A program made the translations under genes and the position numbers. 40,101 nucleotides of DNA, taken from a virus (taxonomy: Duplodnaviria; Heunggongvirae; Uroviricota; Caudoviricetes). The notes under the pieces are model-generated. The model made no database searches and was not told where the DNA came from. It was given only the letters and a program-made list of their open reading frames with translations. Positions 1 through 39,093 of the stretch are shown here, in pieces. The stretch's first letter is position 1, and each line of letters begins with the position of its first letter. The DNA lies in IMG/VR virus record IMGVR_UViG_2718217868_000001, positions 1 through 40,101 of that record. One strand, 5' to 3'.

Positions 1-201
1 TTACCCATTGGCGCGGCTTAAGAGCTTATTTTTGAATTCACAATGGTCACGATATAACCATCTTGCTCGCCCGTGGATAACTTTGGCTTTAGGCAGGTCT
101 CCGGACTTAATCCGGTCATAGATGAAGGTTTTACCGAAGCCAGTATCGGCCATGATGAATTTCAAATCAACCAGTGAATCAGGTTGTAGTTCGTGTTGCA
201 T
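1..201 (-). CDS. torI: Excisionase / recombination directionality factor, TorI-like (66 aa)
   Basis: Complete 66-aa ORF, stop codon at 1..3. The sequence matches my recollection of KplE1/CPS-53 TorI, a small winged-helix DNA-binding protein. It is the last gene of the leftward early operon. Confidence 0.75.
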   Translation of the reverse strand: MQHELQPDSLVDLKFIMADTGFGKTFIYDRIKSGDLPKAKVIHGRARWLYRDHCEFKNKLLSRANG

Positions 202-5450: not shown

Positions 5451-6419
5451 TTAGTAGGTTATTTTTGTTGCGAATACTTCGCCTTTTACGATGGCTGTTA
5501 TGATATTTTTAGCAACATCTTCTGATGCACCAACCTTGATAAGGTCAGCAAGTATTTTGTTATTTACTTCTTTCCGGTGAGCTTTATCCTTTGCTCTGCG
5601 CTCTTCTTCGTCCTTGATTCTTTTTTCTTCTGCTATTCTGGCTTGCTCTTTTGCTTCAGCATCGCGACGGATTTGTTCAGCCTCCTCCTGTGCTTTTCTG
5701 CGTTCTGCTTCAATTGCTGCCTGCTTTTCTCTTTCAGCTCGTTCTGCTGCCTCTTTTGCTTCGCGCTGTGCTCGTTGCTCGGCTTCAATGCGTTCACGCT
5801 CTGCACGTTCCGCTGCGGCCTTAGCTTCTGCTTCTCGCCTTGCTGCTGCTTCAATTTCGGCTTTTGCCTTTGCTTCGGCTTCTGCTCTGGCTTTCTCTTC
5901 AGCTTCTCTTTTTAAGCGCTCTTCATGCTCTCGCTTTTCCCGCTCCGCTTTGAGTCTTGCCTCTTCTCTTTGGCGGTCAAATTCGCGATCCATCAAAATC
6001 GCTATTTCATGGTCAGACTCAATTTGCTTTGCGAGAGCTTCAGCTGCTGCCTTAGCTTCTTCTTCGGCTTTAATCCGCGCCTGTTCTTCCTCATAATCAG
6101 TAAGAGGCTGGCGTGCCTTGGCTTTCAGCTCATCAAGGCGATCACGCACTGTTTTGCGGTTGGCATCAATTAGCTTTGGAATTTCCTTCAGTTCAGCAAC
6201 AAGGTCTTTGCCAAGACCATCGAGATATGTTTTCGTCTGCGCAACTTTATACGCCAGAGAAGCGATCTCCTTTCTGCCCTTTGCCGTTGTGATATCAGGC
6301 ACAAAGGACATAACTTCACGTTCAACCTTTTGAAGGATTTCTTCAATCTGGTCGGCAGACTGAAATACAGTCATTGCATTTGCTTTTTCAATAACAACTA
6401 AATCTGTTACTTCACTCAT
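5451..6419 (-). CDS. Charged coiled-coil protein with a TolA-like E/K/A/R-rich central region (about 322 aa)
   Basis: Start placed at ATG 6419 with a GGAGGA site (the six-frame ORF extends to 6473). About 170 residues of AEEKA/REAEA low-complexity helical repeat flanked by ordinary N- and C-terminal segments. Confidence 0.6.
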   Translation of the reverse strand: MSEVTDLVVIEKANAMTVFQSADQIEEILQKVEREVMSFVPDITTAKGRKEIASLAYKVAQTKTYLDGLGKDLVAELKEIPKLIDANRKTVRDRLDELKAKARQPLTDYEEEQARIKAEEEAKAAAEALAKQIESDHEIAILMDREFDRQREEARLKAEREKREHEERLKREAEEKARAEAEAKAKAEIEAAARREAEAKAAAERAERERIEAEQRAQREAKEAAERAEREKQAAIEAERRKAQEEAEQIRRDAEAKEQARIAEEKRIKDEEERRAKDKAHRKEVNNKILADLIKVGASEDVAKNIITAIVKGEVFATKITY

Positions 6420-6431
6420 ATATCCTCCATC

Positions 6432-6458
6432 AAAAAAATCGCCCTCACATTGGAGGGC
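6432..6458 (-). terminator. Putative intrinsic terminator (minus strand) downstream of the AT-rich cassette
   Basis: Hairpin gccctc/gagggc followed by seven T on the minus strand. Confidence 0.5.
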
Positions 6459-6551
6459 AAAGAAGATTTCCAATAATCAGAACAAGTCGGCTCCTGTTTA
6501 GTTACGAGCGACATTGCTCACATAGCAGACTCGCAAATCTGCTATAGGTGC

Positions 6552-25884: not shown

Positions 25885-27302
25885 TGCCGATTCAGCAACT
25901 TCCGCTTATGAAAGGCGTCGGCAAAGACTTTCGAAACGCCGACTATATCGACTATCTGCCAGTGAATATGTTGGCTACACCCAAAGAAATCCTGAACAGC
26001 AGCGGTTATCTTCGCTCATTCCCGGGCATTGCCAAACGTTCTGATGTGAATGGTGTATCGCGCGGAGTCGAGTACAACATGGCGCAGAGTGCTGTTTATC
26101 GCGTGTGTGGTGGGAAGCTCTACAAAGGCGAAAGCGAAGTCGGTGACGTCGCTGGAAGTGGTCGCGTATCAATGGCGCATGGTCGAACATCTCAGGCTGT
26201 AGGCGTTAATGGTCAACTGGTCGAGTATCGCTATGATGGTACGGTTAAAACCGTCTCAAACTGGCCTACAGACAGCGGATTCACACAGTACGAGTTAGGT
26301 TCAGTTCGTGACATTACGCGCTTACGTGGGCGTTATGCGTGGTCAAAAGACGGTACTGATTCATGGTTTATCACTGACCTTGAAGACGAATCACATCCTG
26401 ACCGATACAGCGCACAATATCGCGCAGAATCTCAGCCTGATGGCATCATCGGCATAGGTACATGGCGAGACTTCATCGTCTGCTTTGGTTCATCGACGAT
26501 TGAATATTTCTCCCTGACAGGCGCAACTACCGTTGGTGCTGCTTTGTATGTCGCGCAGCCATCGCTGATGGTGCAAAAAGGCATCGCCGGAACTTACTGC
26601 AAAACGCCGTTTGCTGATTCCTATGCGTTCATCAGCAATCCGGCAACAGGTGCGCCGTCTGTATACATCATCGGCTCCGGTCAGGTGTCACCAATCGCCA
26701 GCGCGAGCATTGAGAAAATCCTCCGCTCCTACACTGCTGATGAACTGGCTGATGGCGTGATGGAATCGTTGCGATTTGATGCTCATGAGTTGCTGATTAT
26801 TCACCTGCCGCGTCACGTCCTCGTGTACGACGCATCTTCAAGCGCCAATGGTCCGCAATGGTGTGTGTTGAAAACTGGCTTGTATGACGATGTGTACCGC
26901 GCTATCGACTTCATTTACGAAGGCAATCAGATAACGTGCGGCGATAAGCTGGAGTCCGTGACCGGGAAATTGCAATTCGACATCAGCAGCCAGTACGACA
27001 AGCAACAGGAACACCTGCTGTTTACTCCACTGTTCAAAGCGGATAACGCCAGATGCTTCGATCTGGAGGTGGAATCATCCACTGGCGTAGCTCAGTACGC
27101 CGACCGCCTGTTCCTCTCTGCAACCACTGACGGCATAAATTATGGGCGTGAGCAGATGATTGAGCAGAATGAACCGTTCGTTTACGACAAACGCGTTTTG
27201 TGGAAACGAGTAGGGCGCATCAGGAAAAACATTGGTTTCAAATTGCGCGTTATCACGAAGTCACCTGTCACTCTGTCTGGCGCTCAGATAAGGATTGAGT
27301 AA
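25884..27302 (+). CDS. Tail accessory protein gp10 (P22 gp10-like)
   Basis: 472 aa, [49 protein letters not shown].., near-identical to P22 gp10. Confidence 0.95.
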
Positions 27303-28150
27303 TGGCGGATTCGAATCTCAATGTGCCGGTAATCATTCAGGCCACACGGCTCGACACATCAGTCCTTCCACGCAATATCTTCTCGCAGTCGTATCTGCTT
27401 TACGTTATCGCACAGGGCACTGATGTTGGTAATGTGGCTAACAAGGCCAACGAGGCCGGACAGGGCGCTTATGATGCACAGGTCAGGAACGATGAGCAGG
27501 ATGTGATTCTCGCTGACCATGAGCAGCGAATTTCTGCTGCGGAAGCAACGCTTGTTAATCATGAGGAGCGAATCAGCCAGGCAGAATCAACTCTTCAGGA
27601 ACATGAAACACGAATAGCTCAGAATGAAAGCGATATTGCGTCTCTTGATACCAGAGTTCAGTCGCTCGAATCGCAGGTTTCAGACCATGAAACGCGCATC
27701 GATGCTCTGGAGTATGCCACTACTCGCAAAAAGTCAGAGGTTGTTTACTCTGGCGTATCTGTAACCATCCCGACAGCGCCGACCAACCTTGTTAGCCTGC
27801 TGAAAACGCTCACTCCGTCATCCGGCACGTTGGCACCGTTCTTCGACACCGTTAACAACAAGATGGTTGTGTTCAACGAGAACAAAACCTTGTTCTTCAA
27901 GCTGTCGATCGTCGGGACGTGGCCCAGCGGAACCGCCAACAGGTCAATGCAGCTAACCTTTTCCGGCTCTGTTCCTGACACACTGGTAAGCAGTCGCAAC
28001 TCGGCGACAACAACCGATAACATCTTGTTAGCTATGTTCTTCAGCGTGGATAAAGACGGCTTTCTTGCCACAAATGGCAGCACGTTAACCATTCAGTCAA
28101 ATGGTGCGGCGTTTACTGCCACAACCATCAAGATAATCGCGGAGCAGTAA
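27302..28150 (+). CDS. Tail needle protein (P22 gp26-like N-terminus and coiled coil, with a different C-terminal knob domain)
   Basis: N-terminus [43 protein letters not shown].. is gp26-like, followed by heptad repeats; the last ~140 aa are not P22-like (the Sf6 and HK620 needles carry a knob here). Confidence 0.85.
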
Positions 28151-28605
28151 TGATTCAGTTCAAACCAACGCGAAACATCGACCTGATCGAAGCAGTCGGA
28201 AATCACCCTGACATTATTGCCGGAAGCAACAACGGTGATGGATACGACTACAAGCCTGAATGCCGTTACTTCGAGGTGAACGTGCACGGGCAGTTCGGCG
28301 GCATTGTTTACTATCAGAAGATTCAGCCGCTGACCTTTGATTGCCACGCCATGTACCTGCCAGAGATTCGCGGATTCAGCAAGGAAATCGGGCTGGCTTT
28401 CTGGCGATACATTCTGACTAACACCACCGTTCAGTGCGTCACATCGTTCGCTGCACGCAAATTCCGCCACGGGCAGATGTACTGCGCAATGATTGGCCTT
28501 AAGCGTGTAGGAACCATCAAGAAATACTTCAAAGGCGTGGATGACGTGACGTTTTACAGCGCCACACGCGAAGAACTAATCGACTTCCTGAATCACGGGA
28601 GATAG
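28150..28605 (+). CDS. gp14-position protein (151 aa)
   Basis: ORF in the conserved position between the needle gene and the ejection proteins. Confidence 0.6.
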   Translation: MIQFKPTRNIDLIEAVGNHPDIIAGSNNGDGYDYKPECRYFEVNVHGQFGGIVYYQKIQPLTFDCHAMYLPEIRGFSKEIGLAFWRYILTNTTVQCVTSFAARKFRHGQMYCAMIGLKRVGTIKKYFKGVDDVTFYSATREELIDFLNHGR

Positions 28606-28607
28606 CC

Positions 28608-29300
28608 ATGTTATATGCATTTAAGCTGGGCAGAAAACTGCGCGGCGAGGAACCTTATTGCCCTGAAAAAGGCGGGAAAGGTGGCAGCTCTGATAAAAGC
28701 GCAAAGTATGCAGCAGAAGCTCAGAAGTATGCCGCAGACCTGCAAAATCAGCAGTGGCAGACGATCATGAAAAACCTTGCTCCGTTCACGCCGCTTGCGG
28801 AGCAGTATGTTAACCAGCTTCAGAACCTTTCCAGTTTAGAAGGTCAGGGGCAGGCACTTAATCAGTATTACAACTCTCAGCAGTATAAAGACCTTGCAGG
28901 TCAGGCTCGTTACCAGAGTCTTGCTGCTGCGGAGGCGACGGGTGGACTTGGTTCGACAGCCACAAGCAATCAACTGGCTACGATCGCGCCGACACTCGGT
29001 CAGTCTTGGTTATCAAATCAGATGAGCAATTACAACAATCTGGCAAACGTTGGGCTTGGTGCGCTGCAAGGTCAGGCAAACGCTGGGCAGACATACGCCA
29101 ACAACATGAGCAGCATTGCACAGCAAAGCGCAGCACTTGCCGCTGCTAATGCCAATAAACCATCAAGTCTTCAGACTGCAATTAGCGGTGGCACGTCTGG
29201 TGCGATTGCCGGTGCAGGTCTTGCCAGCCTTTTGGGAACATCAACGCCTTGGGGCGCTGGCATTGGTGCTGGTATCGGATTGCTTGGCTCGTTGTTTTAA
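28608..29300 (+). CDS. Ejection (internal virion) protein gp7-like
   Basis: 230 aa, Q/N/A-rich with a glycine-rich hydrophobic C-terminus, first of the three ejection proteins in P22 order. Confidence 0.75.
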   Translation: MLYAFKLGRKLRGEEPYCPEKGGKGGSSDKSAKYAAEAQKYAADLQNQQWQTIMKNLAPFTPLAEQYVNQLQNLSSLEGQGQALNQYYNSQQYKDLAGQARYQSLAAAEATGGLGSTATSNQLATIAPTLGQSWLSNQMSNYNNLANVGLGALQGQANAGQTYANNMSSIAQQSAALAAANANKPSSLQTAISGGTSGAIAGAGLASLLGTSTPWGAGIGAGIGLLGSLF

Positions 29301-29309
29301 GGGGTAATC

Positions 29310-30605
29310 ATGGCTACTTGGCAAGGAACAAACGGCGGATTGTTGGCTGGTATCGGCGGCGTCAACTCAAACGCTCCGAGCGTAAATGACATCGGCAATA
29401 CGCTTCAGCTTATCAGGCAGAACAATGATATTGAGCGTTCAGGCGCTAACAATGTTGGGCTGACTGCTTTGCAAGGCCTTTCAGGTATTGCGGGGGTGTT
29501 TCAGCAGGAAAAGCAGGCTCAGCGGCAGAAAGAATTTCAGCAGGCGTACGCTAATGCTTATGCGTCTGGTGATCGCGGTGCTTTGCGTCAGTTGGCTACT
29601 CAATATCCAGACCAGATTGAATCCGTTCGTAAAGGCATGGGATTCATTGATGAAGACCAGCGTAATTCTATCGGCACCTTAGCGGCTGGCGCACGCCTTG
29701 CGTCATCGTCTCCAGAAGCAATGCAATCATGGCTGCAAAACAACGCCAAGGAACTGACTCGCGTCGGTGTTGACCCTAACAGCGTTGCTCAGATGTATCA
29801 GCAGAACCCTTCAGGATTTGGTGAGTTTGTTGATCACCTTGGAATGGCTGCTCTTGGTCCAATTGATTACTTCAATGTTCAGGACAAGATGGCTGGTCGT
29901 GAGATTGATCGCGGAAAACTTGCAGAGACAATCCGCAGCAATCAGGCTGGCGAGGCACTAACAGCACGAGGTCAGGACATCCAGATACGTGGTCAGAACA
30001 TCAGCGCACAGAATGCTGCGCTTTCCCGCGAAATACAAAGAGCAGAATTACAAGAAAAGGCTCTGGACAGACAGATAGCCAGAGAAAGCAATCAGTTAAA
30101 GCTTGAAGAGTTAAAGCAGAAACAGGCAGATGTTCGGCAAAAGGCTGACATAGCCCGCGCTGACAGGCAGGCCGCCGCTCAGGGTGCAGTTGATACGTTC
30201 AGTACCGCGCTTGACTCTCTCAACGAGATAGAGCAAAGCCCCGGCCTTTCAAAAGCAGTAGGAATTCGCTCAGCGTTTCCGACAGTTCCTGGCTCTGATG
30301 CAGCTAACTTTGAAGCAAGGCTCGACACCTTTAAAGCTCAAACATTCCTTCCTATGGTGCAGTCTCTTAAGGGTATGGGGGCTCTTTCAGATGCTGAGGG
30401 TAAAAAATTATCCGATGCGGTTGGTGCCCTAAGCCCCAAAATGAGTGAAAAGGCTTTTCGTGACTCTATCGGAAAGATTAGAAATCAGCTTGAAAGTAAG
30501 TTGAGCACTGTTAAAAAACAGTTTGATTATCAGGAGCCAGTACAGAATACGCCAGGACAACAATCTCCTGCTGGCAGTAACTTTTCTTCACTATGGGGTG
30601 ATTAA
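29310..30605 (+). CDS. Ejection protein gp20-like
   Basis: 431 aa in the conserved position and order. Confidence 0.75.
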
Positions 30606-33091
30606 TGGCTAAAGCATGGAAAGATGTTATCGCCTCTCCACAGTATCAGGCGTTAGCACCAGAACAAAAAGCGCAGGCTCAGGAGCAATACTTCAATGAA
30701 GTCGTGGCCCCGCAAGCCGGAGAAAATGCAGAGCAGGCAAAACAAGCGTTTTACTCTGCTTACCCTAGAGGTCTGCTAGAGAAGGGTAATATTGACATTC
30801 ACAATCGGCCTGTTGTTAAAAACTCTGATGGCAGCATTAGCACTGTGCGGAGCATGTCTACCAATATAGATGGTAGAGAGGTGCTGATTCCTACCGTTAG
30901 TGATGATGGTCGCATTATGTCTGATGATGAAGCTATTGATAACTTCATGAGGACGGGAAAGCATCTTGGTATGTTCGACAATCCTGACGATGCCACTGCA
31001 TATGCGGAGAGTCTGCACAACCAGCAAGCTGATGAATACCTCCCTAGGAAGAATCAAGCTACACAACAGCCTGTACAGCAAAGTACACAGGCAGCGCCTC
31101 AGCAGCAGAAAGAAGAACCATCATTGATGCAACAAGCTGGCGATTGGCTCACAGGTGGTCAAAGTGCAGGGCAAATTGCAGAGCAGGCTGGTCGTGGTCT
31201 GGTAAACATACCATTTGACGTATTGCAGGGTGGCGCAAGTCTGATTAATGCAATCAGCCAGGGGCTTGGTGGCCCCAAGGTTTTGGACGATGTCTATCGT
31301 CCAGTAGATCGACCAACAGACCATTATGCGCAAGCTGGTGAAACAATTGGTGGGTATCTCCTGCCAATTGGCACAGCGGCAAAAGCTGCTGGAGCGCCAG
31401 CAAAGCTCGCTGGAGATATCGGTTCCACAGGAAACATGATTGCAGGTTCTCTTGCTGATGCTGCAAATCAGGAGGGCGACTTTGCACAAAATGCTGCCAT
31501 TAACGGTGGTATCAATATTGGTGCTCAAGGCGTTCTTTCAGGTGTCGGGCGCGTTATTGCGCCAAGGGTTTCACAGGCTCTTGGTGGTGCAGCACTGAAT
31601 TCTGCTAATGATGTTTCCAGGATGGCAAAGTCAGGTGCTGGGCGTCAGTCAATTGCCAGTCAGGCCGCTAATGTGTCCGAAGATGTAGCAAAAGCGGCTG
31701 AGTCTGCTGGAATTGATATAAACGCATTAACACCAGGAATGCGATCTGGAAGTCGTGGAATTGCACAAGCCGAAGGCGCATTGGCATCAACACCAGGAAT
31801 TGTTCAGGACGCCCATCAGGCAGCATTTAACGAAATATCATCAAAGTTAAGTCGAAACCTTGATGAATTTGGGGCCGCATCTGGAACGGCATCAGAAAAA
31901 AGTGCGGCTATAAAACAAAGGATTCTTCAAAATCTTGATCAGATGAAGGATGCCGAGCGCGCGGCATGGGATGACGTGCGGTCAACAATGCCAAATCAAA
32001 AAGCAAGAATGCTAAATGGTAATGCCGTTATTCAGGCAGAGCGATCTGCTGGCATACCGCTTACTCCTGAAATGAAACAGTTTGTTCAGGCAAACAATCA
32101 AGGTGGAGTAACATTTGATGGCATGAAAGCATGGAGAGCGAAATTTGCTGATGCGGAGCAAAAATATAAGCGTAGCGGAGAGGCAAATGCGGCAAGGAGA
32201 GCAGGGGAAATACGCCGGGCAATTACTGATGATATGCGCACAATGGCGGAAAACGGCGGATTTCTTGATGACTGGCAGAAAGCTAATAATCTGTCTAAAG
32301 CTAGGTTATCAGCACAAGAGAGTGCAGAGTCTGTTTTCGGGCGTGATTTGGCAACAGATGCACTGATTACGAATGGAGTAAAATCCCTTCAATCATCGTC
32401 AGCTAAAGGTCTTAATGGTCCTGCAGGGTTCCATTCTATGATCCGCGCGCTGCCAGAATCAGAGCGTGTTCCTGCTATATCATCAATGTTGCAAGATGCT
32501 ATCTCGCATGGTGTACGTGGTGGCAAAGCTGATGCAGCAGGAATTAACCATATCGCAGGGATACTTACCCCACAAAATGTAAAAGCCATTAGCAGATATT
32601 CCTCAGAACTCGGAAGAATTGCTGATGCATATGGCACTCTTGCAAGAGCAGCAGTGAAACCTCAGCAGTATATTGAAAGAACAGGGAGAACTGCCAATGT
32701 ACTACGCGATCTGGATGCCGGTTTATCCAACGTCACATCAACAGTGTTAAATGCAATTGCCAACTCAACATCAGGTGCCATTGTTGGTGGAGCAGGAGGG
32801 GGCATTGCAGGCGCTGCCGCAGGTGCTTTAGTTGGCGCCGGGTTAAAAGGTGCTGTATCTAAAATTGCCACCACGCGTAGCGGCCGATATGCGATAGAGA
32901 AAGCAGTTCAGGAAGCCACCAAAGCAGTAAGAGCTGGCGGAAGTAAAGAAGCATTAGCGGCGGCGGAACGCAGATTTATGGCAAATAAAGCCGCCGTAAA
33001 AGCAATACGTGATGCAGTTGGAAACGAAGAGTTCAATCGCTTAGCGAGGGCTGGCATTGTAGCGTCGCTAAGCGGAATAGCACAGGAGTAA
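30605..33091 (+). CDS. Ejection protein gp16-like (828 aa, longer than P22 gp16)
   Basis: Large Ala/Gly-rich protein in the gp16 position. Confidence 0.75.
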
Positions 33092-33415
33092 TTAATCATC
33101 CATGGATGGATTGAGCTTATCTCGTGTTGATGTGGCGATTTGTCCTACATTCCTAATCCAAGATTTCAAATCCTTGATATTGTCATTGATTTCATGAATA
33201 TCTTCTTTTTTTAGCCTGTTAATATTATTCTCAATAATTTCAATGGATTGCTCAATATCAGATATGGTGAATGATAGTTTGTTCTTCTCATCTTTTATTG
33301 AGTTTTTAAGTGCTTCGTTCTCAGTCTTGAGGTCAGATATCTTTTGTTTTAAAGATGCCAGTTGGTACTGAACCACAATGAGTGCGATAGCTATCACGAT
33401 AACTGTTGTATACAC
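33092..33415 (-). CDS. Hypothetical membrane-anchored coiled-coil protein (107 aa), AT-rich
   Basis: N-terminal hydrophobic helix (MYTTVIVIAIALIVV) then a heptad-rich segment; very low GC; opposite strand to the late operon. Confidence 0.55.
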   Translation of the reverse strand: MYTTVIVIAIALIVVQYQLASLKQKISDLKTENEALKNSIKDEKNKLSFTISDIEQSIEIIENNINRLKKEDIHEINDNIKDLKSWIRNVGQIATSTRDKLNPSMDD

Positions 33416-33533: not shown

Positions 33534-33953
33534 ATGAAGAGGATTATCGGCGTTGTTGCTGGCGCTATATTGTTATCTGGGTGCGCAACTATTGTTGGTG
33601 ACGAAACACAGCTCGTGCAAGTGAACAGCAATCCTTCCGGTGCGAGCTTTAAAGTAAAAGACGAATCAGGCGTGATTGTTGCGCAAGGCAAGACCCCGCA
33701 AGGAGTAACTCTTGCCAAGTCAGATGGTAGTTATTTTGGCAAAAAGAGCTACCAGATCACTATGGAAAAGGATGGGTACGAACCAGTTACCCTGCCAATC
33801 AAAGCCAATGCTAATGGTTGGTATATTGGTGGAAACCTTGTGTTTGGTGGGTTAATTGGTTGGCTTGCTGTAGATCCTTTTAATGGTGGGATGTATACCT
33901 TGAAGCCAAAAGAGGCAAACGCATCTCTTATACCATCAACAAAGCAAGACTAA
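33534..33953 (+). CDS. Putative lipoprotein with a PEGA-like domain and glycine-rich C-terminus (about 139 aa)
   Basis: Signal peptide with a lipobox (LLSGC); ..VNSNPSGASFKVKDESGVIV..KDGYEPVTLPI.. resembles a PEGA domain; start at 33534 within the six-frame ORF 33501..33953. Confidence 0.65.
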   Translation: MKRIIGVVAGAILLSGCATIVGDETQLVQVNSNPSGASFKVKDESGVIVAQGKTPQGVTLAKSDGSYFGKKSYQITMEKDGYEPVTLPIKANANGWYIGGNLVFGGLIGWLAVDPFNGGMYTLKPKEANASLIPSTKQD

Positions 33954-33960
33954 TAAATAG

Positions 33961-33986
33961 GACCCACCTTCAGGTGGGTTTTTTGT
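33961..33986 (+). terminator. Intrinsic terminator between the convergent lipoprotein gene and mnt
   Basis: Hairpin cccacc/ggtggg followed by TTTTTT; overlaps the mnt stop codon. Confidence 0.7.
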
Positions 33987-34221
33987 ACAAATCCTTCAGC
34001 GTATCAAACACCATCTTCTTAACAAGCTCTGACTGCTCATCAGCGAGTCGTTCTGCATCGTCGCGATATCCAGTCACAGGCGATGGTTTTGATAGAGCAT
34101 CTTGGACGATTTGTAACAACTCGGAGTTCATTGATCTCCCATTCGCCTCCGCCCTGAATTTTAATTTCTCCCTTACTTCCATAGGCATACGGAAGTTAAA
34201 GTGCGGATCATCTCTAGCCAT
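33970..34221 (-). CDS. mnt: Mnt repressor (P22 immI)
   Basis: 83 aa, MARDDPHFNFRMPMEVREKLKFRAEANGRSMNSELLQIVQDAL.., matches P22 Mnt. Confidence 0.95.
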   Translation of the reverse strand: MARDDPHFNFRMPMEVREKLKFRAEANGRSMNSELLQIVQDALSKPSPVTGYRDDAERLADEQSELVKKMVFDTLKDLYKKPT

Positions 34222-34243
34222 GCCATCACTCCAAGTTAGTGTA

Positions 34244-34295
34244 TTGACATGATAGAAGCACTCTACTATATTCTCAATAGGTCCACGGTGGACCT
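34244..34295. promoter_or_regulatory. Divergent Pant/Pmnt control region with the Arc and Mnt operators
   Basis: -35 TTGACA (34244..34249); Oarc ATGATAGAAGCACTCTACTAT (34249..34269); Omnt AGGTCCACGGTGGACCT (34279..34295), as in P22. Confidence 0.9.
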
Positions 34296-34311
34296 ATATT
34301 GTGAGGTGAAT

Positions 34312-34473
34312 ATGAAAGGAATGAGCAAGATGCCGCAGTTCAATTTGCGGTGGCCTAAAGAAGTATTGGATTTGGTACGCAAGGTGGCGGAAGAGAATGG
34401 TCGGTCTGTTAACTCTGAGATTTATCAGAGAGTAATGGAAAGCTTTAAGAAGGAAGGGCGCATTGGCGCGTAA
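34312..34473 (+). CDS. arc: Arc repressor (P22 immI)
   Basis: 53 aa, MKGMSKMPQFNLRWPKEVLDLVRKVAEENGRSVNSEIYQRVMESFKKEGRIGA, matches P22 Arc; start at 34312 within the six-frame ORF 34249..34473. Confidence 0.95.
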   Translation: MKGMSKMPQFNLRWPKEVLDLVRKVAEENGRSVNSEIYQRVMESFKKEGRIGA

Positions 34474-34541
34474 AGTTGAAGCCCCAACTGCGGGAACAGT
34501 CAGGGCTTCGGTATCAACAAATCGTCTTAGGAAATATTGAC
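34474..34541 (-). ncRNA. Putative sar-like antisense RNA covering the ant ribosome-binding site and start
   Basis: Minus-strand promoter (-35 TTGATA at 34571..34576, 17-bp spacer, -10 TATACT at 34548..34553) and an imperfect hairpin in the arc-ant spacer; P22 has a ~68-nt sar RNA here. Ends are estimates. Confidence 0.45.
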
Positions 34542-35465
34542 ATGAAAAGTATAGCAACAGCAGTATCTACTATCAATGTACCATTCCACGGCGCAGAGCT
34601 TTATGTTGTCAATCACAACGGCGAACCGTATACCCCAATGAAACCTATCGTTGAGGGAATGGGGCTAGACTGGAAATCTCAGCATAAGAAGATTTCTCAA
34701 CGCTTCTCGAAGGGTATGGTGGAAATCACCATACCTTCTGCCGGTGGGGTGCAAGCCATGATTTGTATGGCTTTACGAAAATTGGCAGCTTGGTTGAACA
34801 GCATCAGTCCTAACAAAGTCCGCCCTGAAATCCGCGACAAGGTAATCCAGTATCAGGAAGAGTGTGACGATGTGCTCTATGACTACTGGACTAAAGGCCA
34901 TGTAGTTAACCCACGAAAAGCTAAAAAGGCGTTGCCGGGTAAAATCACCACTGAACAGCAGGAAGCCATTAAACAACTCGTCATGAGTCGCGGTCAGTCT
35001 CTGCCAAAGGAAAAACAGGCTAAGGCGATGATCACCATGTGGTCGTCACTGAAATCCCATTTTGGATGTTCGTACAAAGAAATCAGTGAGGAGCAGTTTA
35101 CCGAAGCACTGTCACTTGCAGCTCGAGTTCCACTTGAAGGCGAGTTCATTGGCAAACAAGAGAAGAAAGCAAACGAGCTTTCTGCAAAAGAAGCAAACAG
35201 CCTTGTATGGCTATGGGATTATGCTAACCGTTCACAGGCATTATTCCGCGAACTGTATCCGGCATTAAAACAAATTCAATCGAACTATTCCGGCAGATGC
35301 TACGACTACGGTCATGAATTCTCGTATGTTATCGGAATGGCGAGAGACGTTTTAATCAATCACACACGAGATGTTGATATTAATGAGCCAGACGGACCAA
35401 CGAATCTTTCCGCATGGATGAGACTTAAGAATAAAGAATTACCTCCTTCAGTACATAACTACTGA
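34542..35465 (+). CDS. ant: Antirepressor Ant
   Basis: AGGAAA site; position after arc as in P22; 307 aa; start at 34542 within the six-frame ORF 34476..35465. Confidence 0.75.
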   Translation: MKSIATAVSTINVPFHGAELYVVNHNGEPYTPMKPIVEGMGLDWKSQHKKISQRFSKGMVEITIPSAGGVQAMICMALRKLAAWLNSISPNKVRPEIRDKVIQYQEECDDVLYDYWTKGHVVNPRKAKKALPGKITTEQQEAIKQLVMSRGQSLPKEKQAKAMITMWSSLKSHFGCSYKEISEEQFTEALSLAARVPLEGEFIGKQEKKANELSAKEANSLVWLWDYANRSQALFRELYPALKQIQSNYSGRCYDYGHEFSYVIGMARDVLINHTRDVDINEPDGPTNLSAWMRLKNKELPPSVHNY

Positions 35466-35508: not shown

Positions 35509-35565
35509 TGCCCAAAATTCACCGTGGCAATGCTGCGGCGATTCCTTGTATCTGGAGCAAATTAA

Positions 35566-37413
35566 ATGACAGACATTACAGCCAATGTGATTGTATCGAT
35601 GCCTTCGCAACTCTTCACTATGGCGCGTTCTTTTAAAGCCGTAGCCAATGGCAAAATTTATATCGGTAAAATTGACACTGACCCGGTAAATCCTGAAAAC
35701 CAGATTCAGGTTTATGTAGAGAACGAAGACGGATCTCACATTCCTGTTTCGCAACCAATCATTATCAATTCTGCTGGTTACCCTGTATATAACGGACAGA
35801 TTGCCAAATTCGTAACTGTGCAAGGCCATTCTATGGCTGTTTATGATGCGTATGGTGCACAGCAGTTCTATTTTCCGAATGTGCTGAAGTATGATCCTGA
35901 TCAGCTTGAAAAAAGGTTATCAAGCCCATCCGAAGGAATGGGAGATTCTCTAATTGCTGTTAAACAACCTTTTCCGAGAGCGGTTCCACAGACTCAACAT
36001 TTGTTTAATGCAATGACCTTTTCTGTTTTCAGTTGGGGAGCTAAAGCTGATGGCGTCAATGATGACACAACAGCAATTAAAAACTGTCTTCAAGACCTAA
36101 AGAGTTCATATCCATCTGGATGTAATGTATTTCTTCCAGCAGGAGAGTATAGAATTAGTGAAACTATTATTATCCCTGATAGAATTAATTTGTTCGGATG
36201 TGGAAACGGAACTCATATACGGCCAATAGGAGATATTTTAAGTAATAGTAATGCTTATATTATATGTTTTGATTATGGCCCTACAACAGCAGGTGCATTT
36301 ATTCGTGACATAACCATTACTGGAAACGATATAGTGAAGGGGATAGGAACTACCTTAAAAAAAAGCGATACAGTAATAAGGCAAGTTTACGCTCTTAATT
36401 TTGACTGCGTCACGGTACAAAATTGTTCAATAGGTTTTGAAATGCAAGGCTGGTGGCACAGCTCAATGACAAACTGCCGAGCTAGTGGGTGTAATATTGG
36501 TCTTAGATTGCTTGGTCAGTGTGTTAGTATACATATATCAGGATGTAAATTCACAGGAAAGGGGTTGTCTCAACCATCGTCTATAGGAATAGATATTGCA
36601 CCAGAAACTTACTCATGGTCTGGTGGTGAAGTGATAAGCGAGGGGATAATTATTGATGGTGAGACAATGTGTATCTCAAATAACGTTGGGATATGGGTAA
36701 AAGGTAGCCTTTATATGCATCTTTCGAATGTCGATATTGATTTCGTAGGGTCAACTGGGATAATTCTTGAAAATAACAATTCTGTTTTTTCTGTAAGAGA
36801 TTGCTGGATTGCCGCACAAGGTGACAGCATTAATCAGTTTGTTGGAATAGACTTTAGATCTCAGACGCCTTCAGTTCTTCGTAATATAGAAGGAGTGGAA
36901 ATTAGGTGTGAAAACAATAACCCTATCAATAACAATATAGGTATATCTTTAAACAATGTCAGTAATGTTAATGTTTTGGGAGTAAATATAATTGGTGGTG
37001 ATAAATCAATTTATTCAAAAACATCAAGAAATATTAATATCAATGGATGTATGTTTGCTAGTGATTTGTTGTTTGATGATATTGACGGTCTCTCATTGAA
37101 CGGTAATTACATAACATCACTTACCTTATTAAACTCACCAAAAGATAGAAACAATAACTTTGGGGTTAATAACAATAAATTAACTAGAGGAAAGGTAACT
37201 GTACCTATGTCACCCGGAGCTACATCAGGAACTGCAGACATCCCAAACCCAATTTCTGGCGTCATATATTCTGCCAGCGTAATTCCAACTGATGCTGCAA
37301 ACTCAATGGACACTGTTTCAGTTTCAGGAACAACAATAACAATATCAAGACCAACACCTGTTGGTGTTTCCTTACCAACACTTGTTGAATACTATTTAAT
37401 ATCATCATTATAA
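35566..37413 (+). CDS. Tailspike protein: P22 gp9-like N-terminal head-binding domain fused to a different beta-helix receptor-binding domain
   Basis: N-terminal ~115 aa [58 protein letters not shown].. matches the P22 tailspike head-binding domain; the rest is an unrelated pectate-lyase-like region (..[25 protein letters not shown]..). Confidence 0.9.
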
Positions 37414-37442
37414 TCAGCCTGCCAATATTTTATTACACAATC

Positions 37443-37478
37443 AAAAGGCTTTCCTTGCCGACGAAGAAAAGCCTTTTG
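37443..37478. terminator. Bidirectional hairpin between the convergent tailspike and integrase genes
   Basis: About 10-bp stem aaaaggcttt/aaagcctttt with T-rich flanks on both strands. Confidence 0.5.
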
Positions 37479-37699
37479 TAGTATAATTTATGATTTCATA
37501 CGTTTATGGTGGGTTAATGTTTTTTTATCAACCAAGGAAGTTACATCACAAGAAATAAAAATATCTATTAAAAGATACTTTTCATGATAACGATGATATT
37601 TAAATTGAATGAATTATGTTTTGTGAGAAAAAACTGAGACACACAAAGCTTTGCACTGGATTGCAAGGCTTTGCGCTATTCGATAAGGGTTAAGGTGGG

Positions 37700-38893
37700 T
37701 CACTCCACCTTTTCATCAAGCCAGTCCGCCCACCACTGCATCATTTCTCTGCGCTTGTCGAGATACTGAGCATGGTTGTAAATCCCGCGCACAGATCCGC
37801 CGTTGGCATGTGCAAGTTGCACTTCAATAGCATCAGCAGGCCATTCGTGCTCGTTCATAATCGTGCTGAATTCATGCCTGAATCCGTGACCGCTTTCCAG
37901 ACCCTCATAGCCGATTTGTTTGATCACAAGCAATACCGCGTTCTCGCAGATTGGCTTCTTCTTATCGTTGCGCCCGGCAAAAACAAACTCTGATACTGGT
38001 TTAGTGATGGAGCTTAGCGTAGTGAGAAGTTCAACTACCTGGTCCGACATCGGAACCACATGAATTTTGCGTCCCTTCATCACACTGGCGTCGATGGTGA
38101 TAATCCTGTTTTCAAAATCGACGTTCTTCCATAGCATGGAACGAAGCTCTTTTGTTCTGAGGGCTGTGTAGCGTAAAGCTTTGGTCGCAATGAGCGATAC
38201 GATACTTCCTGAAAATGTTGCCAGTGCTTTGTTGAATGCCGGGATCTGGTCTGCAGGAAGAAACGGGAAGTTCTTCTTGCGGTATCCCTTCATGGCGTCA
38301 GCAAGGTCAGGTGCCGGGTTATATTTAGCCCTTCCGGTGACAATAGCGTAACGGAAAACCTCTCCGCATCTTCTGCGGGCTTTGTTGGCTCGCTCAATTG
38401 CACCGCGATCTTCAAATCTGCGGATTACTTCCAGCAGTTGCATCGGCTCAATATCCTGAATTTCAAGGCTGCCGATGATAGGTAAAATGTCGTCATCAAA
38501 CATTTTGGCAAGTTCAGTTGCATAGCCTACTGACCAGACTTGCTTCTTGTGCTCGTACCATTCCTTGTAAATGGCACTAAAGGAATTGTTGTTAGACGAA
38601 GCCTTTTTCGCTTTTACCGGATCGATGCCAACCGAGATGTCTTTCCTCGCGGTCCATGCTTTATCCCTTGCCTCCTGCAAAGTCATAAGCGGATATTTTC
38701 CGACGGTCAGGATTTTCTCCTTACCGTCAATCTTGTAGCGAAGCTGCCATACCTTTTTCCCTGATACAGGGACATAAAGGTACAGGCCATTACCATCGAG
38801 TAGGCGGTATGGTTTTTCTTTCGGCTTTGCTGCTTCAATCTGCTTAACGGTGAGCATGGGTAAAAATCCGGTGGGTAAAATTATTTTATCCAC
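37700..38893 (-). CDS. intS: Tyrosine integrase (KplE1/CPS-53 IntS-type)
   Basis: 397 aa; C-terminal catalytic motifs HGFRHEF and ..VRGIYNHAQY; adjacent to and transcribed away from the tRNA-Arg gene. Confidence 0.9.
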   Translation of the reverse strand: MDKIILPTGFLPMLTVKQIEAAKPKEKPYRLLDGNGLYLYVPVSGKKVWQLRYKIDGKEKILTVGKYPLMTLQEARDKAWTARKDISVGIDPVKAKKASSNNNSFSAIYKEWYEHKKQVWSVGYATELAKMFDDDILPIIGSLEIQDIEPMQLLEVIRRFEDRGAIERANKARRRCGEVFRYAIVTGRAKYNPAPDLADAMKGYRKKNFPFLPADQIPAFNKALATFSGSIVSLIATKALRYTALRTKELRSMLWKNVDFENRIITIDASVMKGRKIHVVPMSDQVVELLTTLSSITKPVSEFVFAGRNDKKKPICENAVLLVIKQIGYEGLESGHGFRHEFSTIMNEHEWPADAIEVQLAHANGGSVRGIYNHAQYLDKRREMMQWWADWLDEKVE

Positions 38894-39032
38894 TTTTTAC
38901 CCGTCATGGAGTGCGGCTGTCAACGATCTGACGCGAACCATTACGAACTGTGAATCTACGGAAGGCTTGATATTCAGGGGATTTTGCGGACTGGTACGGA
39001 TGAGAGCGAACTGATAAATGGTGTCCCCTGCA
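38894..39032. promoter_or_regulatory. Prophage-host junction (att region with probable integrase promoter and arm sites) overlapping the tRNA 3' end
   Basis: Position between int and the tRNA; exact core and crossover are not determinable from one junction. Confidence 0.5.
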
Positions 39033-39093
39033 GGAATCGAACCTGCAATTAGCCCTTAGGAGGGGCTCGTTATATCCATTTAACTAAGAGGAC
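39019..39093 (-). tRNA. argW: tRNA-Arg (anticodon CCU), argW-type
   Basis: 75-nt minus-strand sequence GTCCTCTTAGTTAAATGGATATAACGAGCCCCTCCTAAGGGCTAATTGCAGGTTCGATTCCTGCAGGGGACACCA with a cloverleaf and CCU anticodon. Confidence 0.9.

Follow-up and report, generated by a model that had tools for sequence, protein, structure and literature searches.

An Sf6-type tailspike in a P22-like Escherichia coli prophage, probably directed at a Shigella flexneri-type O-antigen

Judged by its sequence, the body of the tailspike described here is a distant yet clear member of the Sf6 tailspike family, and the protein, which comprises 615 aa and is encoded by the ORF at 35566-37413 (+), constitutes a second tailspike of the Sf6 type, one that has diverged deeply, i.e. 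a new protein in a family that has already been characterised. It probably belongs to the O-antigen-cleaving enzymes of this family and is directed at the flexneri-type O-antigen of its host, a conclusion that we draw from the co-occurrence of tailspike and O-type across about three lineages and from full-length phage matches that come exclusively from phages of S. flexneri. A surface receptor different from that of P22, as had been proposed in a first-pass annotation of this DNA, is very likely, and the body has no match to the P22 endorhamnosidase. Compared with Sf6, the present phage carries a differing Sf6-type body and no serotype-converting gene.

The window, i.e. the whole stretch of 40,101 nt that was analysed, is the prophage of a temperate P22-like phage (Lederbergvirus-type) that occupies argW in E. 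coli H5/H6; at the DNA level the tailspike ORF is 100 % identical to a gene that both the H6 and the H5 chromosome carry under the annotation 'phage tailspike protein'. In the RefSeq annotation the prophage reads, from left to right, torI/xis at window position 1, early genes, replication, nin region and lysis genes, followed by terminase, portal, scaffold, coat, gp4/gp10/needle and three ejection proteins, and finally by an immI-like region (mnt/arc/ant), the tailspike and the integrase. The genes for virion, lysis, replication and regulation are all intact in this annotation, with zero pseudogenes; PADLOC and Pfam assigned nothing to the hypothetical genes located upstream of immI or in the early-left region. 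The blastn match to Sf6 terminates at the annotated attP core, and the prophage ends on the right at argW, beyond which yfdC lies. The ORFs of the tailspike and of the needle (282 aa) have exactly the coordinates given in the first-pass annotation. The features discussed below are collected in Table 1.

Table 1. Features of the tailspike region and of related virion genes in window coordinates.
Feature	Position	Strand	Basis or remark
Sf6-type tail needle	27302..28150	+	aa 1-144 gp26-like plug and coiled coil; aa ~130-282 TNF-like knob
Third ejection protein, gp16-type, 828 aa	30605..33091	+	exchanged module; PHROG DNA transfer protein and transglycosylase
Tailspike aa 1-113, P22-type head-binding (tail-adaptor) domain	35566..35904	+	Pfam PF09008, Sf6 identity, P22 structures
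Tailspike aa 114-150, linker/neck, site of the mosaic junction	35905..36015	+	drop in nucleotide identity to Sf6
Tailspike aa 151-541, Sf6-type right-handed parallel beta-helix	36016..37188	+	phmmer, Foldseek; 35.8 % identity to Sf6
Predicted catalytic Glu359	36640-36642	+	aligned with Sf6 E366
Predicted catalytic Asp392	36739-36741	+	aligned with Sf6 D399
Tailspike aa 542-615 and stop, Sf6-type C-terminal beta-sandwich	37189..37413	+	Pfam PF21519; 52 % identity to Sf6
Non-coding AT-rich spacer, 286 bp	37414..37699		32.5 % GC; position of oac in Sf6
Integrase IntS, Sf6-/HK620-type	37700..38857	-	RefSeq; NCBIfam integrase domain match
tRNA-Arg(CCT), argW	39019..39093	-	integration site and right prophage end; ARAGORN and RefSeq

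The tailspike was expected to retain the head-binding N-terminus of P22, and it does: Pfam Head_binding (PF09008) covers its full model at aa 1-113 (E 2e-66), and the tailspike chains of P22 in the PDB match aa 1-114 only (phmmer). In the same region the protein is 90 % identical to Sf6 gp14 (90.5 % at the DNA level). This adaptor DNA recurs at 90-96 % identity in Sf6, HK620, CUS-3 and E. coli prophages, of which there are more than 1,100, and DNA matches of the tailspike gene to other phages and prophages, among them epsilon34, are confined to its first 339-408 nt, at 84-96 % identity.

Past the adaptor the protein is homologous to the Sf6 tailspike over its whole length. A phmmer search of PDB sequences returned the Sf6 tailspike with an E value of 1.4e-169 for the entire protein and of 5e-101 for aa 120-611 against Sf6 TSPdN, the N-terminally truncated crystal construct (2vbe, 4urr), and in a pairwise alignment aa 114-615 share 38.7 % identity with Sf6. 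Pfam places Tailspike_C (PF21519) at aa 542-611 (E 1.5e-16) and the start of a pectate-lyase-like beta-helix between Head_binding and Tailspike_C. The PHROG 'tail spike protein' family matches over the full length (1.8e-170), zero NCBIfam models match the tailspike, and NCBI already names close copies of it 'endorhamnosidase'. Homology to the beta-helix of P22 gp9 (residues ~125-666) is absent from the body, as the P22 chains stop at aa 114 and the structural similarity amounts to a TM of ~0.2. An alignment of the C-terminal part along the P22 endorhamnosidase, which had been named beforehand as the outcome that would speak against an exchanged receptor-binding part, does not occur in the PDB search. 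The description of the body as an 'unrelated beta-helix' thus holds with respect to P22, to which there is no sequence match past aa 114, but fails in general, since the body is a homologue of the Sf6 tailspike.

A comparison of predicted and known structures, which the first-pass annotation had proposed, ranks the folds in the same way. In a Foldseek search of the PDB with an AlphaFold2 (AF2) model, the Sf6 tailspike structures came first (E 1e-32 to 1e-35, target-normalised TM up to 0.74), far ahead of P22 (1e-13, TM ~0.2) and HK620 (~1e-7). The model is that of a monomer with a mean pLDDT of 68.8 and mostly 70-90 in the body; its N-terminal domain, built on a 4-sequence alignment, is poorly modelled, and the model served only for this ranking of folds.

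An HMMER search run exhaustively over 1.84 billion representative proteins yielded only 14 clusters at E <= 1e-30, a family that a word-indexed protein search, which returned just 4 clusters, could not reveal. In the phage collection, full-length protein matches to the body were found in S. flexneri phages only (Sf6, SFN6B, Buco), and the body had no DNA-level match there; a literature search on the host range of SFN6B gave nothing useful. The catalytic residues of the Sf6 tailspike are E366 and D399 (PMC7463171), and when 14 members of the family are aligned, neither of their counterparts, E359 and D392, varies.

We infer from these comparisons the trimer geometry, the enzymatic activity, the cleaved linkage and the actual receptor, which together would give the following mechanism. 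The first 113 residues dock the tailspike onto the tail, and, by homology, the protein should form a trimer with its active site between subunits, to which one chain would contribute Glu359 and its neighbour Asp392 as the putative catalytic carboxylates; the active site is intersubunit in the Sf6 tailspike and intrasubunit in the P22 tailspike (PMC10408124). The tailspike would then bind and cut the rhamnose-rich O-antigen of the host as an endorhamnosidase, whereby the virion would be lowered to the outer membrane. The needle, being the standard one of Sf6, plugs the portal channel and influences DNA delivery, not the choice of host.

The specificity of the enzyme need not be that of Sf6. None of seven ligand-near positions of the Sf6 tailspike (taken from PMC7463171) is identical here in the pairwise alignment: V204 falls into a gap, and D245, S246, T315, N340, Y400 and T443 are replaced by G, P, G, G, F and S, respectively, two of the seven changes being conservative. 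Given a body identity of ~39 % and 0/7 identical ligand-near positions, the linkage or side-chain specificity could differ from that of Sf6.

The galF-gnd cluster of H6 comprises rfbBDAC, wzx and wzy of the O13/O129/O135 family and two rhamnosyltransferases, and ends with genes for a GtrA-family protein, a GT2 protein and a GT87-family protein. O13, O129 and O135 O-antigens are related to those of S. flexneri types 1-5, as stated in the passages of PMC12243508, PMC4732683 and PMC7685785 that refer to Perepelov 2010, and the H6 cluster corresponds, in E. coli, to the rhamnose backbone of S. flexneri. The endorhamnosidase activity of the Sf6 tailspike is directed at the Rha-alpha-1,3-Rha bond of the flexneri backbone, and Sf6 infects serotypes X and Y only (PMC8973906).

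This O-type is rare. The O13-family wzy is present in 27 of 5,426 complete E. coli genomes (0.5 %), and both genomes with the present tailspike, H5 and H6, are among these 27. Genuine Sf6 receptor-domain DNA (>=99 % identity) was found in three genomes, again all among the 27; CFSAN061762 carries an intact tailspike with oac, and LD93-1 and NCTC9967 carry remnants. Hence the complete E. coli genomes that contain an Sf6-type receptor domain, five in number, are without exception of the O13/O129/O135 type, an association that comes from few independent lineages, about three; even so, such a co-occurrence with an O-type of 0.5 % frequency is very unlikely to be due to chance. A survey of hosts could not be widened by DNA relatives, because a sensitive blastn search of the body in the 5,426 E. 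coli genomes hit H5 and H6 only. Independently of this, the host of a prophage may have changed its O-antigen after lysogeny. One further O13-family strain, PM06121, was considered as a second carrier and discarded: it harbours a P22-like prophage at argW, the 768-aa tailspike of which shares the N-terminal part only, has an unrelated body and ends in a Peptidase_S74 chaperone domain. The O-type does not, then, dictate the tailspike.

The three genes at the end of the O-antigen cluster (gtrA/GT2/GT87) allow a more specific, if tentative, proposal. H5 and H6 have an intact trio, whereas each of the three E. coli genomes with genuine Sf6 receptor-domain DNA has a broken one: in CFSAN061762, codon 158 of GT2 is a nonsense codon and GT87 is frameshifted by a 1-bp deletion, and in NCTC9967 and LD93-1 a large deletion has left 31 % of the trio region. 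Among the 27 O13-family genomes the trio is intact in about half and frameshifted, IS-interrupted or deleted in the rest, and the association of tailspike type with trio integrity (roughly p 0.06) is only suggestive. Based on the trio pattern and the seven differing ligand-near positions, the present tailspike may accept a modified backbone that is closed to Sf6. We may thus speculate that it is the natural counterpart of the Sf6 tailspike for a (Gtr-)modified flexneri-type O-antigen, a possibility to which we give distinctly less than even weight. The host GT87 protein (GtrC-like) had zero matches in a tblastn search of the phage collection, and hence no tie there to a known serotype-converting phage or to a defined linkage.

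The tailspike gene is a mosaic, and its boundaries are sharp. According to blastn, the window is 96.1 % identical to Sf6 over 26770-30751, i.e. from the end of the gp10 homologue (Sf6 gene 8) through the second ejection protein (Sf6 gp12), 90.5 % over 35551-35904, which contains the N-terminal domain of the tailspike, and 96.7 % over 37707-39033, from int through the attP core, with zero DNA match to Sf6 over 35905-37706. Across codons 101-140 the nucleotide identity to Sf6 drops from 0.8-1.0 to 0.4-0.6 with a sharp junction at about codon 113, and in codon windows of the body the third-position identity to Sf6 is near saturation. The GC content is 36 % in the tailspike body, 50 % in the late operon and 44 % in the Sf6 body. 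As judged from these sequence comparisons, the cassette 35905-37706 would most likely have been exchanged, relative to Sf6, by recombination at the domain linker; it comprises the receptor-binding body and the spot that oac occupies in Sf6.

Exchange of this kind is not restricted to the present phage. In other phages the body occurs behind at least three other types of N-terminal adaptor, as seen in the family alignment, and for many of the tailspike families in PHROG the similarity to our protein is limited to the N-terminal ~120 residues. As relatives from the same body family bear differing adaptors, the body is a mobile module, and the modular design that the first-pass annotation had read from the sequence, a conserved adaptor with a swapped body, is supported. 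The third ejection protein resembles Sf6 gp13 in its first 59 aa only, the high-identity match to Sf6 stopping at 30751, and the immI region is missing from Sf6; the virion gene block has the classic modular pattern of P22-like phages. Of the tailspike itself, 45 copies that are nearly identical were found among E. coli isolates and metagenomes, with a constant tailspike-integrase layout.

In Sf6 the O-acetylase gene oac is located between gene 14 (tailspike) and int. Here, the stop codons of tailspike and integrase are separated by 286 bp, as in the independent isolates and metagenomes, and this gap contains zero ORFs of 60 aa or more. The RefSeq annotation of the whole prophage lists zero glycosyltransferase or acyltransferase genes, and neither Sf6 Oac nor GtrA/GtrB/GtrC-like proteins gave anything meaningful when the whole window was searched with them by tblastn. 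The earlier observation that gtr and oac are missing beside the integrase is thus correct, and the prophage lacks the hallmark of a serotype-converting one, gtrABC or oac next to int/att. A hairpin is visible in the gap at ~37444-37480, which the terminator scan did not flag.

The needle is nearly that of Sf6: it is identical to Sf6 gp9 at 277 of 282 positions (98 %), and Pfam PF16532 ('Sf6-type phage tail needle knob') matches with an E value of 5e-117. It had been predicted to combine the N-terminus and coiled coil of gp26 with a domain of ~140 aa that P22 lacks, and both parts are found, aa 1-144 matching structures of P22 gp26 and aa 130-282 the knobs of Sf6 and HS1 (3rwn, 4k6b), with which the needle shares the order of gp26-like N-terminal plug, coiled coil and TNF-like knob. 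The Sf6-type knob is present in 69 of 164 P22-like genomes, all of Escherichia or Shigella phages (Leavitt et al. 2013, PMC3741392), and its copies all differ by 4.9 % or less (PMC3741392), a range that includes the five substitutions by which the present needle differs from Sf6 gp9. The interpretation of the needle C-terminus as a receptor-recognition part, however, runs against published experiments, in which P22 remained infectious for Salmonella when a knob of this type was introduced as a chimera (Leavitt et al. 2013, PMC3741392). By the published evidence the knob does not set the host range.

Other explanations of the tailspike have to be weighed against a flexneri-type receptor. The body could be a glycosidase of Sf6 fold for a polysaccharide unrelated to the flexneri backbone, e.g. 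another O-antigen or a capsule, the O13-family host being the result of a later switch or of chance. The strong divergence from Sf6 with saturated synonymous positions, the lack of conservation in the ligand-near residues, the frequent exchange of tailspike bodies (family alignment, PHROG; PMC10408124) and PM06121, with its different tailspike in an O13-family host, would all be compatible with such a substrate. Nevertheless, we regard it as unlikely, for the five complete genomes with Sf6-type bodies all lie within the small fraction that has the O13-family wzy, all characterised phages with a full-length match infect S. flexneri, and the host cluster encodes a rhamnose-rich O-antigen.

It is less probable still that the protein is an inactive relic, or one that only binds, in a defective prophage. 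The window does not include the left attachment site and shows the integrity of the prophage in part only, but the ORF is intact with both catalytic residues conserved, no pseudogene is annotated among the virion, lysis, replication and regulatory genes, and the near-identical copies come from independent samples. That the C-termini of tailspike and needle are new receptor-recognition domains without a characterised relative, as the missing DNA match in the phage collection and the missing NCBIfam model for the tailspike might suggest, can practically be dismissed in view of the overwhelming protein homology of both proteins to solved Sf6 structures and of the Pfam families dedicated to the two C-termini (PF21519 and PF16532). 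As uncharacterised domains, the C-terminal parts are refuted by Pfam, PDB phmmer, pairwise alignment and Foldseek alike.

Taken as an Sf6-family enzyme for a flexneri-type O-antigen, the present tailspike has its closest characterised counterpart in Sf6 gp14, an endo-alpha-1,3-rhamnosidase (2vbk, 2vbe, 4urr, 7sg7). Both proteins have the order of head-binding domain, beta-helix and C-terminal beta-sandwich, similar lengths (615 aa here, 623 aa in Sf6) and both catalytic carboxylates, and both are encoded by P22-like phages with an argW-specific integrase, the hosts of which possess a flexneri-type rhamnose O-antigen cluster. They differ in the sequence past residue 113, in the ligand-near positions and in GC content, and the present phage lacks the downstream oac; moreover, the in-cluster gtr-like genes are broken in the E. 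coli hosts of the Sf6 tailspike, whereas they are intact in the present hosts. With the endorhamnosidase P22 gp9 (2xc1, 8tvr) the protein shares the N-terminal head-binding domain and a trimeric beta-helix architecture on a P22-like tail, but nothing in sequence past residue 114. Members of the same body family, aligned over the whole body, are the metagenomic proteins P0002 (58 %), which has a divergent head-binding domain, and P0003 (53 %), which has a PF18668-type N-terminal domain, and the tailspikes of the S. flexneri podophages SFN6B and Buco (~31 %), which have differing N-terminal adaptors; other members bear other long N-termini in the alignment.

In the main, these findings confirm the textbook view that P22-like phages swap tailspike bodies at the linker behind a conserved adaptor, and the Sf6-type needle knob is widespread among phages of Escherichia and Shigella. 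What they add is modest, namely a diverged Sf6-type tailspike that is linked to E. coli strains whose O-antigen is Shigella-flexneri-like. Should its specificity not be that of Sf6, e.g. if a glucosylated backbone is accepted, the protein would be a comparison partner for the Sf6 tailspike-glycan system and possibly a probe or depolymerase for variants of the flexneri-type O-antigen. If the in-cluster trio adds a side-branch, the body, which is 39 % identical and altered in its groove residues, would represent a second specificity within the family, and the O13/O129/O135 strains would then constitute a natural system in which an on/off modification of the O-antigen co-varies with the type of tailspike.

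Among the distinct relatives of the tailspike body, P0002 is the closest, with 58 % identity, and is found on a 36.6 kb metagenomic contig (Logan SRR23073231; L004), where the ejection genes directly abut the tailspike gene. The phage backbone of this contig is unlike that of the window and comprises a GH108 lysozyme, Dam, RecT/YqaJ and a divergent head-binding domain. PM06121, an O13-family strain isolated from Galapagos seawater, carries a tailspike that has only the N-terminal ~135 residues in common with the window tailspike and whose C-terminus is formed by a Peptidase_S74 intramolecular chaperone domain. These features suggest that the PM06121 tailspike recognizes a different receptor, possibly a capsule.

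The third ejection protein of the window is longer than its Sf6 counterpart (828 vs 665 aa) and corresponds to Sf6 gp13 only over the first 59 residues (90 %), whereas the region beyond residue 59 matches a transglycosylase family as well as the PHROG category 'DNA transfer protein'. In another sample, L010, the same tailspike has a 703-aa variant of this protein encoded upstream of it. The interval from the ejection genes to the tailspike contains, as in P22, an immI-like region, which is absent from Sf6. Two hypothetical small genes of opposite orientation are located between the ejection genes and the immI-like region, and this pair is kept beside the same tailspike in other samples (L010, L013), with the second gene also being present in PM06121. 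In P22 the corresponding area harbors sieA and other exclusion genes.

At the left end, the attachment site is located just beyond the window edge, between dsdC and torI on the H6 chromosome. The early-left operon contains a further hypothetical ORF at a position that is a typical site of accessory or exclusion genes. This stretch has a low GC content (41-45 %), and its AT skew, calculated for the + strand, is strongly negative (-0.40); the only PHROG matches of the ORF, phrog_1376 and phrog_21365, are both annotated as unknown function, and neither Pfam nor PADLOC yielded a match.

Features in the window and in comparison loci
Feature	Location	Strand	Remarks
torI (xis-like gene)	window 1-201		window begins exactly at this gene
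Hypothetical ORF	window 5451-6473	-	322-340 aa; between cIII/kil and N
Third ejection protein (gp16-type)	window 30605-33091	+	828 aa
Hypothetical small gene	window 33092-33415	-	107 aa, predicted coiled-coil
Hypothetical small gene	window 33534-33953	+	139-150 aa
immI-like region	window 33970-35465		
Mnt/Arc-family repressor	window 33970-34221	-	in immI-like region
Arc	window 34312-34473		in immI-like region
P22-type antirepressor	window 34542-35465		in immI-like region
PM06121 tailspike	L007:4001-6307 (NZ_CM129866.1)		768 aa; in P22-like prophage at argW
P22-like prophage of CFSAN061762	L009 (NZ_CP042901.1 3232550-3244082)		adjoins ybhB/bioA, not argW
gtrA/GT2/GT87 (GtrC-like) trio	L006:29971-33132 (NZ_CP010170.1 2014971-2018132)		closes O13/O129/O135 cluster

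E. coli CFSAN061762, which originates from raw-milk cheese, harbors a P22-like prophage. In DNA sequence, the tailspike body of this prophage matches its Shigella phage Sf6 counterpart at 99.7 % identity, and it is directly followed by an oac-like acyltransferase gene. Thus, the Sf6 module for receptor recognition and conversion circulates in O13-family E. coli. The state of the gtrA/GT2/GT87 trio differs between the O13/O129/O135 clusters of complete genomes (the L006 region and 26 other genomes): about half retain all three genes intact, GT87 carries a 1-bp frameshift in at least nine, an IS element splits the trio in A21 and G3/10, and most of it is deleted in NCTC9967, LD93-1 and CUPF09. 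In published surveys, gene content failed to explain the serological split into O13, O129 and O135, and this variation of the trio might account for it.
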